Assembly: GCA_035290625.1 (NCBI GenBank)
Contig: DATDTY010000033.1
Location: 20,482-84,481, forward strand
Length of the DNA: 64,000 nucleotides
Direction of reading: 5' to 3'
Origin: Candidatus Nanoarchaeia archaeon
GTDB lineage: Archaea > Nanobdellota > Nanobdellia > Woesearchaeales > DATDTY01
Positions 1,408-59,441 of this stretch are shown piece after piece. Under the pieces are notes generated by a model. It was not told the origin of the DNA, did not search any database, and saw nothing but the letters and a program-made list of their open reading frames with translations. The position numbers were made by a program, and so were the translations under genes. Numbering within the stretch: position 1 is the first letter of the stretch; every line of letters begins with the position of its first letter.

Positions 1408-1469
1408 GCAGCATTTCTAAGAAATTATGTATTTAAAGCTTTGGGCTCCTTAAGCTCTGTCCAGCTAAG

Positions 1470-1586
1470 GGTTGCCGCCCTTTCTGTGAGGTTTTGAACC
1501 AAGACATCAGCACCGACAAGGGAGTCGCCCCCATGGAGGAATGTCGGCTAGCAGCAGAAACAACGCAACCGAACTTGGCGGCAACC
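1470..1586. repeat. Structured repeat family 3, copy A (117 nt). Closed by the 10-bp stem GGUUGCCGCC ... GGCGGCAACC. Homologous to 46242..46359.
   Basis: Terminal 10-nt segments are exact reverse complements. Internal blocks (CUUUCUGUGAGG, AUCAGCAC, GAAACA) are shared with copy B. An outer 9-bp inverted repeat gctctgtcc/ggacagagc lies at 1453 and 1606. Confidence 0.45.
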
Positions 1587-1635
1587 CGATCCTCTATGAG
1601 ATTCAGGACAGAGCCTGTTGGCTTACCCTATGCTC

Positions 1636-11007: not shown

Positions 11008-11075
11008 TGCGGGGAGCAGGCAGCGCAACTCACTTCGTTCGTTGCTGGCCTGCTCTCCTCGTTCATTTCATTCAC
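11008..11075. repeat. tRNA minihelix-like element, 68 nt. Begins with a copy of the 13 3'-terminal nt of the adjacent tRNA (RC gcggggagcagg). Forms a hairpin with gcctgctctcc.
   Basis: Direct repeat of the tRNA 3' end 55 nt from the true tRNA end. About 90% identical to the units at 30357..30498, with compensatory differences. Confidence 0.55.
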
Positions 11076-11239
11076 TGCGGGGAGCAGGATTCGAACCTGC
11101 GTAGGCACTAAGCCAACAGATGGCCCGCCTGAGTAGTTCATCAGACCTGGGTGAGGACCTCAACACTCATGACTTGAGTATGGACGTTTTAGCGCCTGTC
11201 GCCAAACTCTGTCCCGTTTGGCCACTCCGGCATCCCCGC
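11076..11239 (-). tRNA. Intron-containing class II tRNA (Leu-like). Long variable arm UGGCUUAGUGCCUAC and discriminator A. 164 nt, implying an intron of about 80 nt. Anticodon unresolved.
   Basis: Acceptor GCGGGGA/UCCCCGC. D arm CCG-GAGUGGCCAAA-CGG. Anticodon stem ACAGA/UCUGU separated by 87 nt. T arm GCAGG-UUCGAAU-CCUGC. Near-identical scaffold to the tRNA-Leu at 30499..30582. Canonical 37/38 splicing would give the loop GUUUGGA. Confidence 0.6.
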
Positions 11240-11285
11240 ATTGTGCGGAGTAGAACGCCCCGTGTTTTAAATATGTTGCTTTTTG

Positions 11286-11525
11286 GGCTCAGTAGAAAGT
11301 CAGTCGGCAGTGGCTTGCAAGCGAGCAAGGCGAGCTTGCTCGCTAGCCACCGGCTCGCTTGTGCTTCCTTCACTGTTTGCTGACACCCCCGAAGGTGCTA
11401 AAAAGAGCCATGCTCTTTTGGCACATCAAAACGCCAGAGGGCGTTTTGATTGGGCCAACCCTCTGTCAGCGGTGCTATAAAAGTAAATAAGCTCGCAGAA
11501 AGGATGCCGGACTTTCTACTGAGCC
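11286..11525. mobile_element. MITE-like element family 1, copy 2 (240 bp; carries an extra internal palindromic insertion). Same 16-bp terminal inverted repeats. Flanked by tttttg.
   Basis: Terminal repeats identical to copy 1. The internal insert gcaagcgagcaaggcgagcttgctcgc is itself palindromic. Confidence 0.7.
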
Positions 11526-20933: not shown

Positions 20934-21078
20934 GGCTCTGTAGAAAGCCAATCGGCATCGGGCTCGCCTGTGGGGAGATAGGCGATTGCTGACACCCCCG
21001 AAGGGGTCTACCCCCTGTCAGCAGTGCTGATGAAGCTGAAGAAGCTCGCAAAAATGATGCCGGGCTTTCTACAGAGCC
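20934..21078. mobile_element. MITE-like element family 1, copy 3 (145 bp). Terminal repeats GGCTCTGTAGAAAGCC / GGCTTTCTACAGAGCC, with two compensatory base changes relative to the other copies. 7-bp flanking gtgaatc.
   Basis: A->T and T->C changes in the left arm are matched by T->A and A->G in the right arm. Internal 9-bp duplication gaagaagct. Confidence 0.7.
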
Positions 21079-30361: not shown

Positions 30362-30498
30362 GATGTATGCGGGAGACAGGCAGCGCAACTCACTTCGCTC
30401 GTTGCTGGTCTGTCTTCCTCGCTCATTTCATTCACTGCGGGAGACAGGCAGCGGAATTCGCTGCGCTCATTCCTGGTCTGTCTCCCTTGTCTTTTGAC
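30357..30498. repeat. Two tandem tRNA minihelix-like units (about 70 nt each). Each ends, in tRNA sense, with the 13-nt tRNA-Leu 3' end CCUGUCUCCCGCA. The first overlaps the L18e start codon.
   Basis: tgcgggagacagg occurs three times in direct orientation (30357, 30431, 30499). Units are about 90% identical to 11008..11075. Hairpin arms gggagacaggc / gtctgtcttcc. Confidence 0.55.
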
Positions 30499-30582
30499 TG
30501 CGGGAGACAGGATTCGAACCTGCGTAGGCACTAAGCCACATGGTCCTTAGCCATGCCCGTTTGACCGCTCCGGCACTCCCGC
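30499..30582 (-). tRNA. tRNA-Leu, class II, anticodon read as AAG (loop CUAAGGA), 84 nt, no intron
   Basis: Acceptor GCGGGAG/CUCCCGC. D arm CCG-GAGCGGUCAAA-CGG. Anticodon stem CAUGG/CCAUG. Variable arm UGGCUUAGUGCCUAC. T arm GCAGG-UUCGAAU-CCUGU. Discriminator A. Confidence 0.75.
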
Positions 30583-30593
30583 AAACCGGACTG

Positions 30594-45997: not shown

Positions 45998-46000
45998 CAG

Positions 46001-46177
46001 CTCACCCAATTCCAAGAAGCGCGTTTCCCTGAATGTGCAGGGAGATTATTATAAGGATGATAATCACTGCAATAATGATAATGTGGCCGGGCTTAAGCGT
46101 GATCTTTGATTTATACTCATCGAAATACCTTGTCAAGCCACCCATGCCTGAGGGAAGATGGATCCTGTCCTGCGCCA
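46001..46177 (-). CDS. secG: Preprotein translocase Sec61 beta subunit (archaeal SecG/Sbh homolog), 58 aa. Missed by the ORF track, which lists an out-of-frame ORF 46117..46371 instead.
   Basis: Manual translation MAQDRIHLPSGMGGLTRYFDEYKSKITLKPGHIIIIAVIIILIIISLHIQGNALLGIG carries the GL(T/I)RYF motif followed by a single TM helix. Confidence 0.7.
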
Positions 46178-46241
46178 TACCCCTTATAAGTCTGTGTTTG
46201 TTTAAATAGTTTTGCTATCGTTTTGACCTGGCCCGATTGGA

Positions 46242-46359
46242 GGTTGCCGCCTCTTTCGCGAGGCACAATAACTCCTATCAGCACAAGCGGAGGGGGTCGT
46301 CCCATACGGGGCGGTGCCGCTCTTCGCTGGAAACAGCAAGAGCCGAGCTGGCGGCAACC
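46242..46359. repeat. Structured repeat family 3, copy B (118 nt). Same GGUUGCCGCC ... GGCGGCAACC closing stem as copy A. Contains a GAAA tetraloop hairpin CUGGAAACAG. Flanked by an 18-bp direct repeat ctatcgttttgacctggc (46215-46232 and 46388-46405).
   Basis: Terminal complementarity and flanking duplication read directly. Shares the AUCAGCAC and GAAACA blocks with copy A. Confidence 0.45.
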
Positions 46360-46915
46360 CGAACCATGCAAGATTTGGGGTAGTGCCCTATCGTTTTGAC
46401 CTGGCTGGTTCTGAAGAAGTCCTTATAATCTCATCCGGAAATCCGTACTCGAACGGAAATCCGTACTCGAAGTATACCTTACTAGAAGTATAGAATTATG
46501 GGCAGAAATAAGCCGCCTTTTGTGGGGCCCTCCCCTTTTGGAAAGGTTCATCGAAGGCCCTGCCAGCATTTGACTTAGCGTTCTGTGAACTTGCACAAGC
46601 CGGGGCTCGCCTTTCATCCATTCACAGGAAAATCCATTGGATTTTCCTGTCCCGGAAAATCTCTGATTTTCTCGGGCCTCAAAATCGTCTGCAGGTTATC
46701 TCAGTTTTGTCGCCAAAACCTTCTCATGCGTCTTCCTCTTTGAGGGGGGTCTTGTTTCTGCGCGGTTGCCATCCCTTTCGAGATGTGCCTCTCGGCACCG
46801 GCTGCTCCATCCTAAATAAGGGAATTTAACCCTTATCTTCGGACTTCAGTGGGCGGACTTTCCTCAGTTTCCCGAAAGCCAGCTTTCTGCCCGCTTTCTG
46901 AAAAGCTCCGCTCAT

Positions 46916-48046
46916 TTATAAACCTTTATCCTCCATTTTCTGCTCTTTTCTGAACAGCAGGATCCTAAACTCTTTTTTCCCCTGCCAGATAGATCTCCTC
47001 TCTTTGATGATGAACTGGCGCTTTTTTGCGGCCTCTTCAACCTTCTCCGGCTTGGGGGTCAGCAGTGCGATAACTCCCTCTTTTCTTAAGATGTATTCTG
47101 CAGCGTAAAAGAATTCATTGAGCAGCTTTTCTCCTCCCTTGTCATCCAAACCTTCCGGCAGCCTTGTGATAATCTTGTCTACGCTTTCTTTCTCAAAGCG
47201 CGTATCCAGCCATTCTGTCTCAATCTTTGAGAAGCGAATTGCTGAGCAGCCTGCAATCTTTGCGTTCTTCTCAGCAGCACGAACATTCCTCATCTCGGGG
47301 TCGGCGGCGGTGATGCCGAGTTGCGGCTTCTTGTACTCTCTATCGATATTCTCAAACCATTTTAGGATTCTTGGCTGGCTTGTTAGCTTTTGCTTCTCGA
47401 AAAAACGAACAGGCCGCTCTCTTGCGAGGCATGCCTCAATGGCGATTTCTCCGCTTCTGCAAAATGGATCAAGGATGGTTTCGTCCTTTTTTATCTCTGC
47501 TATCCTGCAGAGGGCAAATGCTGTTGTGCCGGTAATGCCTTGAGGGTGTGTGAAAATCCTGTAGGTGCGTTTTCCCAGATCCAGCTTTGTTATGTCCCTG
47601 CTTATGCTGATACCCTTGTTGGTGGCTGAAACGAGGATGGTCTGCTCTGGGTTCTCAAGATCCACTTCCAGGATATTCCTGCTTTTGGCCTTGATGCATT
47701 CCCCACAACCAGCCTCTATCTCTTTAGCAGTATGCTCAGGATCCTCTCTGGTTAGCGATTCCACCTTAAAGCTTCCCTTGAGCCAGCCCCACCTGCATTT
47801 GTTGATCATGCCTCTGGCTTGGTCCAGGATATCGTCGCTCTTTTCTTCCCTAATCAGAAGTTCTCCAATCCGGTGAATACTCTGGGCGCAGTACGCGACC
47901 TTCCACACGGCATCTTCGGAGGCGTCAAACACCACCTCTTTCTCATTGATTGTTGCGTGCGCAGAGATTAATTCGCTGATCTCTTTCTCTGCAGCCTCTT
48001 CAGCTCCCCTTTGGGTATAGGCAACCGCCTTCAGAACCTTCCTCAT
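46916..48046 (-). CDS. THUMP-domain RNA methyltransferase (Trm14 / tRNA m2G6-like)
   Basis: N-terminal THUMP-like region. [15 protein letters not shown] (motif I). Class I MTase fold. Confidence 0.65.
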
Positions 48047-50611: not shown

Positions 50612-50753
50612 GGGCTCAGTAGAAAGTCAATTGGCATCAGACTCGCTTGCGCTCGTATTCGTGTATGCTGCCCCCCGAAGTTGGCAACTCTGTCAGCAGT
50701 GGTTATGACTGCAAAGAAGCTCGCAAAAATGATGCCGGACTTTCTACTGAGCC
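50612..50753. mobile_element. MITE-like element family 1, copy 4 (142 bp). 16-bp terminal repeats identical to copy 1. Perfect 8-bp target-site duplication gtattgag (50604-50611 and 50754-50761).
   Basis: Terminal repeats and abutting direct duplications read directly. Lies upstream of gyrA. Confidence 0.8.
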
Positions 50754-52448: not shown

Positions 52449-52496
52449 GACCTTTTGGTATACCCTTGCTTATAAAAATCTTTCCAGCCAATGGTG

Positions 52497-52896
52497 GCAT
52501 TGAAAAGTCATGCAATGCCCTTTGTGAGCCTTCTATTCAAAGTACAGAACAGCGACAAAGGGGTTGCTCCATACGGAAAATGTCGATTCCCATGAGAGTA
52601 TGCGCAAGGCGAAGTCGGCATTGCCGAACGAAGTGAGCAACTTTTCAATGCGACCCAGCCAACGGCTCTACTGAAACCCCCGGCAGTGCCCATTTGCGAG
52701 GCTTCTCCATGACTAACGGCGCATCGACAAGAAGGCTGTCTCATCCGGAGAATGTCGATTTAAATCCAAGGCATTCCGAGCCGAGCCTGGCACTGCCTGC
52801 GAAGCGTTTCAGCAGAGCCCAGCCCAGAGCGCTATTGAAAAGCCATGCAACGCCAACTTGCGAGGCTTAAGAGCAACCGCTTCCCTCGAGCAACGA
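52497..52896. repeat. Repeat family 2: about 2.3 degenerate tandem copies of a roughly 170-bp unit bounded by cattgaaaagt ... acttttcaatg
   Basis: Unit 1 (52497..52655) has a 12-bp terminal inverted repeat gcattgaaaagt/acttttcaatgc. Shared blocks ttgcgaggcttct, aatgtcgatt, ggcattgcc recur in units 2 and 3. Confidence 0.55.
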
Positions 52897-52923
52897 ATTA
52901 CTCAACCCAGCATCACACAGAAA

Positions 52924-53250
52924 TTATCTCTTTTTCTTTCTTCGTATCTTTCTTTGCCTGCGTTTTGGCTTTCTCCGAGCCTCAGCCAATGCGCGTTTCC
53001 AAACAGCTTTCGCAGCCGGAACAGCACGCGATGCCATCTGTCTTGCTTTTTTCCGAAGAACACGCTTTGCAAGCTTGCCTTCTTTCCTTGCGACACTCTT
53101 TACAATGCTTATTGCTCTCCTTTCCTTTTTGCCGATTCCTGTGAAGCGCAATGTTTGCCCTATCCCTTTAGCCACCTTGTGCTTTGCTGCTGCGGCAAGC
53201 CGCCTGCCAAATCTGATTCCCCTTCGAATATGCTTGAGCACGGCATTCAC
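52924..53250 (-). CDS. Hypothetical highly basic (Lys/Arg-rich) protein, 108 aa
   Basis: ORF. Extreme basic composition. Could be a nucleic-acid-binding protein or spurious. Confidence 0.3.
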   Translation of the reverse strand: MNAVLKHIRRGIRFGRRLAAAAKHKVAKGIGQTLRFTGIGKKERRAISIVKSVARKEGKLAKRVLRKKARQMASRAVPAAKAVWKRALAEARRKPKRRQRKIRRKKKR

Positions 53251-59278: not shown

Positions 59279-59441
59279 GGTGCCATTGAAAAGTTGCTAG
59301 CTTCGCTCGGCAGCGCCAAGTTCGCCATGCGCAGATGCTAAGGAAAAACGACATTCTCCGAAGGCGCCAACCCTCTTGTCGTTGCACAGTCTTTTGTTCC
59401 AATGGCTCACAGGAGGGCGCTGCATAACTTTTCAATGGCGC
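59279..59441. repeat. Repeat family 2, single inverted copy (163 bp) with terminal inverted repeats around ccattgaaaagtt / aacttttcaatgg. Flanked by a 7-bp direct repeat ttgggct (59272-59278 and 59442-59448).
   Basis: The reverse complement aligns along the whole length with unit 1 at 52497..52655 (shared cattgaaaagt, tgtgagcc, ggagaatgtcg, tgcgca, agcaacttttcaatg). Confidence 0.55.

Follow-up and report, generated by a model that had tools for sequence, protein, structure and literature searches.

An RNase P RNA gene carrying a 53-nt insertion and a probable, decayed miniature transposable element between the THUMP methyltransferase and Sec61beta genes of a Nanoarchaeia archaeon

The 64-kb stretch of Candidatus Nanoarchaeia archaeon DNA analysed here (the window, in whose positions all coordinates are given unless another locus is named) contains an interval of 737 bp (46179-46915) between the start of a Sec61beta gene (46178) and the stop of a THUMP/UPF0020 methyltransferase gene (46916), in a locus whose proteins are listed at NCBI as HLD42927-HLD42931. 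The list of open reading frames (ORFs) holds no credible ORF inside this interval, and no protein gene spanning the region was found, in agreement with a first-pass annotation which had described a non-coding gap of about 740 bp. The gap is, however, not the unusually long spacer that this annotation had suggested, as 393 of its 737 bp form an RNA gene, which is protein-non-coding and yet no spacer. The interval resolves into features of known kinds (Table 1), namely a ribonuclease P (RNase P) RNA gene which bears a 53-nt insertion and represents a new member of its kind, a decayed copy of a miniature inverted-repeat transposable element (MITE) and local duplications. Once decoded in this manner, the region is ordinary.

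Comparison of the window against Rfam with Infernal returned only three tRNAs at the gathering thresholds, and the RNase P RNA match surfaced when E-value thresholds were applied. A non-coding RNA was among the options offered by the first-pass annotation, and the scan that it suggested thus located the gene, with the proviso that the gathering threshold had to be relaxed. The match to the archaeal RNase P RNA model RF00373 is full-length (model positions 1-288 of 288) and scores 77.8 bits, below the Rfam gathering cut-off of 84, with E-values of 1.8e-21 (1.3-kb region) and 8.9e-20 (whole window), and no second RNase P RNA match was found in the window. Those core strings that are conserved universally all occur in the window RNA and align with the RF00373 consensus, including the P4 strands GAGGAAAGUCC ... 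ACAnAAGGnGGCUUA, the J-region GCAAG and CGCUnAGU, with CGCUAAGUC and ACAAAAGGCGGCUUA as further core strings in the alignment, and the core strings are identical in a sister species (locus L010). The window RNA belongs to the archaeal type; its P15 region is reduced, and a further hairpin follows the 3' strand of P2. Both characteristics are common to all five Nanoarchaeia RNAs, which comprise 2-5 nt where RF00373 has 34-39 nt distal to P15, and hence lack P16, P17 and P6, and incorporate an additional hairpin of 18-34 nt after the 3' strand of P2. The RNA would be transcribed from its own TATA box, from 46892 to approximately 46500, and would join the archaeal RNase P proteins to cut the 5' leaders off pre-tRNAs.

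Close relatives of the locus were collected by exact-protein look-ups, a scan of genome contigs with the THUMP protein having yielded only distant ones. The top THUMP homologues carry the names Woesearchaeota or Nanoarchaeota. An identical THUMP protein is encoded on six contigs, which come from distinct samples of groundwater and other origin and share 99.9-100% identity with window positions 46000-47000 on the basis of BLAST, and the region is consequently no assembly artefact. The sister species (L010 and L011), with a THUMP protein that is 72% identical, is the sole relative closer than 40%, and its loci align with 46489-46997 and 46000-46223 of the window, with nothing in between. Three distant Nanoarchaeia (L089, L090 and L091; 34-40% THUMP identity) retain the order GyrA, THUMP, gap, Sec61beta and NAC. 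An RNase P RNA lies between THUMP and Sec61beta in L010, L011, L089, L090 and L091, with the orthologue of L010 (positions 2141-2478) scoring 103.2 bits, which exceeds the gathering score of 84, and the scores across the Nanoarchaeia range from 78 to 149 bits, some of them near or below the Rfam threshold. The TATA box upstream of the RNA and its 22-nt distance to the RNA are the same in L010 and L011 (alignment A1). Similarly, the TATA box of Sec61beta is kept in both loci as a TATATAAA-type box, and its distance of 22 nt from the ATG in the window implies a leaderless or near-leaderless mRNA. The gap between THUMP and Sec61beta comprises 387 bp in L089, approximately 434 bp in L010 and 737 bp in the window, and 35-73 nt separate the RNA end from the start of Sec61beta in the relatives, versus 321 nt in the window. 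This suggests that the excess length over the relatives is small once the RNA gene is counted; the extra ~300 bp consist of the 53-nt insertion, the MITE and small duplications. None of these three features is conserved in the sister species. A complete absence of conservation of the spacer in related genomes had been named in the first-pass annotation as grounds for rejecting its reading; the RNase P RNA part proved to be highly conserved, and such an absence applies to 46224-46488.

Table 1. Features of the gap between the THUMP methyltransferase and Sec61beta genes, RNase P RNAs of distant relatives and further MITE copies in the window
Feature	Position	Strand	Length	Basis or remark
Sec61beta gene (left border)	46002-46178	minus	58 aa	ORF; PF03911 match on identical gene in L005-L009
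Sec61beta TATA box TATTTAAA	46201-46208	minus		Sequence; 22 nt upstream of ATG; putative function
18-bp direct repeat CTATCGTTTTGACCTGGC, left copy	46215-46232		18 bp	Perfect; outer 9 nt CTATCGTTT; last 9 overlap expected 5' tip
MITE copy A	46224-46387	plus	~164 nt	Terminal inverted repeats decayed; 5' boundary uncertain (46224-46233)
18-bp direct repeat CTATCGTTTTGACCTGGC, right copy	46388-46405		18 bp	Perfect
Local tandem duplications	46436-46492			2 x 18 nt CGGAAATCCGTACTCGAA (46436-46471, perfect); also three degenerate units of 16 nt (46443-46492)
RNase P RNA gene (rnpB)	46500-46892	minus	393 nt	RF00373 covariance-model match
53-nt insertion (RNA nt 217-269)	46624-46676	minus	53 nt	Alignment A1 against L010/L011
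Helix P12 (RNA nt ~148-216)	46677-46746	minus		Covariance-model alignment and segment fold
RNase P RNA TATA box TTTATAAA	46915-46922	minus		-30 to -23 from first RNA base; overlaps THUMP stop; putative promoter
THUMP/UPF0020 methyltransferase gene (right border)	46916-48046	minus	376 aa	ORF; Pfam PF02926 and PF01170
RNase P RNA of L089	L089 3667-3962		296 nt	148.7 bits
RNase P RNA of L090	L090 3964-4293		330 nt	110.5 bits
RNase P RNA of L091	L091 4831-5138		308 nt	85.8 bits
MITE copy	~1454-1619			Profile/pattern search
MITE copies in tandem	52494-52654, 52661-52820, 52830-52940			Profile/pattern search; third unit degenerate
MITE copy	59280-59441	minus		Profile/pattern search
Related MITE subfamily	168-317, 1636-1771, 11285-11525, 20934-21078, 50613-50753			Profile/pattern search

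The 53-nt insertion consists of two adjacent hairpins, CCCGAGAAAAUC-AGA-GAUUUUCCGGG and ACAGGAAAAUCC-AAU-GGAUUUUCCUGU. These are the 21-bp palindrome and the second hairpin of the first-pass annotation, both of which exist, although the coordinates were off by 11, with the palindrome GGAAAATCCATTGGATTTTCC lying at 46627-46647 rather than 46616-46636; its arms extend out to 46624-46650, and the second hairpin occupies 46651-46676. The insertion is found in the window and in the six contigs of the same species from different samples, and is absent, with clean flanks, from L010 and L011, where the rest of the RNA is almost base-for-base identical (alignment A1). It is on account of this insertion that the window gene is missed at the standard thresholds, the L010 RNA being without it. 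The 3' strand of helix P12 (GAUUUUGAGG) directly abuts the insertion. In a fold of this segment P12 is intact, with CCUCAAAG pairing with UUUUGAGG and GGUUUUG-GCGA-CAAAACU forming the tip, while the insertion forms a pair of separate hairpins, immediately 3' of P12 and before the GAAUGGAUGAAAGG strand of P10/11. At this position bacterial type A RNAs carry P13/P14. The P12 3' strand carries the same GAUUUU motif as the hairpins, and five copies of GAUUUU(G/C) occur in alternating orientation within ~65 nt, the first of them being this native strand. At the DNA level, 4/29 window occurrences of GAAAATC/GATTTTC are concentrated within 46628-46671, and the complement of the native strand lies at 46681. 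The RNase P RNA of this species gained the insertion directly 3' of P12, within the specificity domain, where it most likely arose locally through successive inverted duplications of the GAUUUU(G/C) motif of the P12 3' strand. The conserved RNase P core would be left intact, as the hairpins of the insertion are self-contained and peripheral.

Downstream of the RNA gene, a cut-and-paste MITE copy of ~164 bp appears to have been inserted next to the Sec61beta promoter and subsequently to have decayed. This copy (copy A) is the "family 3 element with 18-bp flanking repeats" of the first-pass annotation, in which the remnant of an integrated element was one of the options considered; this option was right in spirit, and the flanking repeats are perfect. 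Copy A aligns along its length with 20 other members (alignment A3), and the family profile matches 46238-46387 with an E-value of 1e-19, ending exactly at 46387. At its tips only about 8/16 nt are complementary, and the profile leaves the first 13 positions unaligned, while the 5' end resembles the inverted repeat of the L075 subfamily (13/20 nt). Closer subfamily relatives of copy A occur in L075, L026, L062 and L052, some of which have intact inverted repeats, for example GGCTCTGTCCTGAATGAAGG in L075. Window positions 46224-46488 correspond to ~48 nt in L010 and L011, which have only one CTATCGTTT-like sequence, by the Sec61beta TATA box. Given this empty site, copy A was either gained in the lineage of the window or lost in the other. 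No match to the 18-bp direct repeats was found in any of 100 shuffles. The outer 9 nt of these repeats, CTATCGTTT, correspond to the usual target-duplication length of the family and behave as a normal duplication, while the inner 9 nt, TGACCTGGC, lie at the 5' tip of the element on the left and in ordinary flank on the right.

Profile and pattern searches for sequences related to 46233-46387 place about 10 copies of the MITE superfamily to which copy A belongs in the window. The units are 155-166 bp in size, contain no ORF and have GGC-ended inverted repeats. A core pattern matched four window copies, where none was expected by chance, and picked out 77 loci in public metagenome data, most of them of groundwater or sediment origin, among which 60 distinct cores could be distinguished. 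In 24 metagenome copies an automatic search found terminal inverted repeats that mismatch at no more than 2 of 12 positions, for example GGCTTCCCTGAAAATG, GGCTCAGTAGAAA, GGCTCTGGTGAAA, GGTGGCATTGAAAAGT and GGCAGCGTTCAAAATG; the direct repeats that flank them measure 8-11 bp, most frequently 9 bp, and are copy-specific in sequence. The combination of terminal inverted repeats and copy-specific duplications identifies these units as non-autonomous cut-and-paste elements. The three units at 52494-52940 are arranged head to tail with CAGCC(C)AA-like junctions in common, and a similar sequence flanks the copy at 59280-59441. Clean duplications of 8-9 bp (CTATGCTC, GTGAATC and GTATTGAG) border members of the subfamily whose terminal repeat is GGCTCAGTAGAAAGTC. 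The repeats match no Rfam family, and the core motif gave no match in viral contigs. The inverted repeats of IS903B start with GGC. Nine-bp direct repeats are made by IS903B (PMC10513040). The GGC ends and 9-bp duplications of the window family recall IS903-type (IS5 family) elements, which may be taken only as a lead, since no transposase partner was identified. A widespread and very dense MITE superfamily in groundwater Nanoarchaeia is exposed by these copies.

Two further observations concern the architecture of the superfamily. In the flanks of the MITEs of L022, L033, L043, L057, L071 and L034, the subfamily whose terminal repeat is GGCTTTTTGCAGGGG lies within a larger unit that is itself repeated and has the outer inverted repeats AGTAAAGTTTCCAAGT ... 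AACAGCTTTACTTAAC, which suggests composite or nested elements. Optional double-hairpin modules of 43-58 nt are present in the MITE core of L017, L025, L029, L040, L050, L052, L056 and others, in the window at 11398-11460, in L019, L075 and L083, and at positions 812-858 of L018. These always occur at one of two positions, either before the 3' strand of the inner helix or in the apical loop of the conserved hairpin. The proposal that the 58-nt module is independently mobile was withdrawn, as it always lies at a homologous position of the MITE core.

The interior of these elements is structured. When RNAalifold was applied to a MAFFT alignment of the copies, only the central hairpin was recovered, with the outer helices out of register, and base pairs were counted with anchored rules in Python. 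The inner helix varies by compensatory substitutions (GCAGCGCC/GGCGCTGC, GTTGCCGT/ACGGCAAC, GGTAGTGC/GCACTACC, GCCAGCAT/ATGCTGGT and CCTTGCTG/CAGCAAGG), which span subfamilies whose inverted repeats share no sequence. In comparison with shuffled partners, a control which ignores the relatedness of the copies, P3, a short helix with conserved GA dinucleotides flanking both strands, retains 4.26/5 pairs versus 3.0 (maximum of 1000 shuffles 3.38), and the outer pairs of P4, the near-invariant hairpin CGACAAGGGGG...GGGGAAUGUCG, retain 1.78/2 versus 1.02. The hairpins furthermore have RNA-type loops, UUCG/UACG-like and GAAA, when read in the plus orientation. Together, these features suggest that the MITE core may be under selection for the fold of a single strand, possibly of RNA. 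The UGAUGA/CUGA motifs in some copies were considered as hammerhead or C/D-box elements, a reading which was rejected, as the motifs are not conserved across the copies.

The compensatory changes in P3 and the outer part of P4, together with the RNA-type tetraloops, could also be read as evidence that the family 3 unit represents an independent gene for a structured small RNA rather than mere transposon debris. Its plus-strand transcription would proceed from the abutting bidirectional TATA box, and copies A, B and F are each immediately adjacent to a divergent gene's TATA box. This is considered unlikely. The terminal inverted repeats and copy-specific 9-bp duplications mark transposed units, the absence of copy A from the sister species indicates that there is no conserved gene at this locus, Rfam holds no matching family for it, and the partner-shuffle controls are blind to copy relatedness. 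A broader proposal is doubtful at present, namely that the superfamily carries a selected single-strand fold, most likely of RNA (four helices in which compensatory changes occur, an internal loop of tandem G-A and the near-invariant CGACAAGGGGG...GGGGAAUGUCG hairpin with UUCG/UACG-type loops), which might serve its own mobilisation or regulation, for example as cofactor or guide for a transposase, and that, separately, the species may have an RNase P with two new hairpins tolerated in its specificity domain at the bacterial P13/P14 position.

The double-hairpin modules nested in the MITEs bear on the origin of the RNase P insertion, which could itself be a tiny mobile palindromic element of this 43-58-nt class rather than the product of local duplication. 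Many MITE copies hold modules that are alike in size and design, with A4-5/T4-5 tracts in the stems as in the insertion hairpins, and one arm plus loop of the insertion, AGAGAUUUUCCGGGA, agrees at 14/15 positions with the 3' inverted repeat AGAGAUUUUCAGGGA that belongs to the GGCTTCCC MITE subfamily. This match was found post hoc, however, and is not significant by BLAST in that database, and homology between the module sequences and the insertion was not found. Neither the window nor ~650 kb of related loci holds a second copy of the 53 nt, the best match comprising 17 nt with an E-value of 0.3, and the alignment with the sister species (A1) reveals no target duplication at the borders of the insertion. 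As the nested modules always occupy homologous positions in the MITE core, they do not demonstrate mobility of their own, and a mobile origin of the insertion appears quite improbable. The first-pass annotation had also raised a replication or partition site, but it is highly improbable that the palindromes, two adjacent and near-perfect ones with a common GGAAAATC, are a DNA site bound by protein (an origin, partition site or operator) which lies in the gap by chance, as they are located within a transcribed RNA gene, are missing from the sister species in spite of the same surrounding genes and are unique in the window, where GC skew keeps its sign and follows the minus-strand genes; the hallmarks of an origin (repeated elements of the origin recognition box, ORB, type, a GC-skew change and conservation) were not observed at the palindromes, and an adjacent orc1/cdc6 gene was not searched for.

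The remaining spacer downstream of the RNase P RNA gene would have been expanded by short duplications. The tandem repeat of two units noted in the first-pass annotation is a perfect one, and 46398-46499 consists largely of such 18-nt units and of 16-nt tandem units. No counterpart of this segment was found in L010 or L011 beyond its two ends, and no match occurs elsewhere in the window or in the other related loci. The repeats are read as a lineage-specific expansion of the slippage type, with no function indicated. A second MITE remnant in 46398-46499 was considered and rejected; only GGCTGGTTCTGAAGAAG at 46403 resembles the MITE terminal repeats, and homology was not found.

The gap is interpreted as an essential RNase P RNA gene plus recent junk in the form of the 53-nt insertion, the MITE and the tandem duplications, and a probability of about 0.88 is assigned to this interpretation. 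Several points weigh against it. The ends of the RNA, its promoter and the retention of the insertion in the mature RNA are inferred from sequence. The function of an RNase P RNA which scores below the curated threshold is assumed in spite of the insertion, on the grounds that the insertion is fixed in all sampled contigs and that the window has no other RNase P match. The probable origin of the insertion by local duplication is read from the pattern of the motif. The flanking repeat of copy A is perfect over 18 bp, in conflict with the 9-bp rule of the family and with the decay of the inverted repeats, and a simple old insertion fails to explain this combination; as a guess, the overall length could have been preserved if conversion or repair had overwritten the 5' tip with 9 nt of flank. 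Finally, a search of 650 kb of related loci for an autonomous partner, by means of inverted-repeat pairs 100-5000 bp apart with duplications, yielded only MITE-sized units and none that encloses an ORF, whole genomes lying outside this search.

If this interpretation holds, a recent addition of 53 nt next to P12 is tolerated by the specificity domain of RNase P. The possible loss of RNase P is a topic of discussion for this clade, Nanoarchaeum being a case in point. Pipelines that depend on thresholds may report this Nanoarchaeia genome as being without RNase P RNA, and the order THUMP, RNase P RNA and Sec61beta can serve as a simple positional guide to the gene in other DPANN genomes.

Other repeats and insertions were observed at a distance from the gap. 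Positions 11071-11115 repeat the 3' half of a tRNA-Leu gene (30498-30583, minus strand) over 45 nt at 91%, and 52-nt units which start like the tRNA-Leu 3' end occur at 11008 and, in two copies, immediately downstream of the tRNA (11008-11115 versus 30368-30583). This pattern resembles copies of an attachment site which flank an integrated element of ~19 kb. The adjacent block at 32-36 kb has an unusually low G+C content (0.365) and contains two diverged direct-repeat pairs (35981-36072/36920-37011 and 36659-36747/37837-37925; 71-74% identical, ~90 nt, ~1 kb apart), which look like tandemly duplicated gene segments. Among the relatives, positions 1-2307 of L091 comprise a GyrA gene with an intein and a LAGLIDADG domain according to precomputed Pfam matches, unlike the GyrA gene of the window.

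In comparison with the archaeal RNase P RNAs (RF00373) of types A and M, the window RNA likewise incorporates the P1-P4 core, P7-P10/11 and P12 with a GA-rich kink-turn (K-turn) region. The type M RNAs are without P16-17 (PMC5499556). The Nanoarchaeia RNAs likewise lack P16-17 and keep only a remnant distal to P15, but the window RNA is not a clean type M, as P8 and P9, which the other Nanoarchaeia RNAs keep as well, are both present. Both the window and the L010 RNAs differ from the model in having 55 nt between P7 and P9 where the model has 14, while the double hairpin 3' of P12 occurs in the window species alone and drops the score below the gathering threshold. [quoted passage not shown] Like the window insertion, these represent genome-specific repeat sequence within an otherwise conserved RNase P RNA gene. 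They are, however, tandem heptamers of a genome-wide repeat family which extend a helix, while the window insertion forms two palindromic hairpins beside P12 and has no other copy that could be found.

The highest MITE densities among the archaea have been recorded in DPANN genomes, including a Woesearchaea genome, with 105-146 MITEs/Mb in a Woesearchaea and an Altiarchaeum genome (PMC11602168). The density of ~10 copies in 64 kb of the window is in line with these values. As with other prokaryotic and archaeal MITEs, the members of the window family are short (155-166 bp), ORF-less and intergenic, with terminal inverted repeats, a target duplication of fixed length and a high copy number. They differ from typical MITEs in that the interior is no random filler, but a conserved multi-helix core with compensatory changes.

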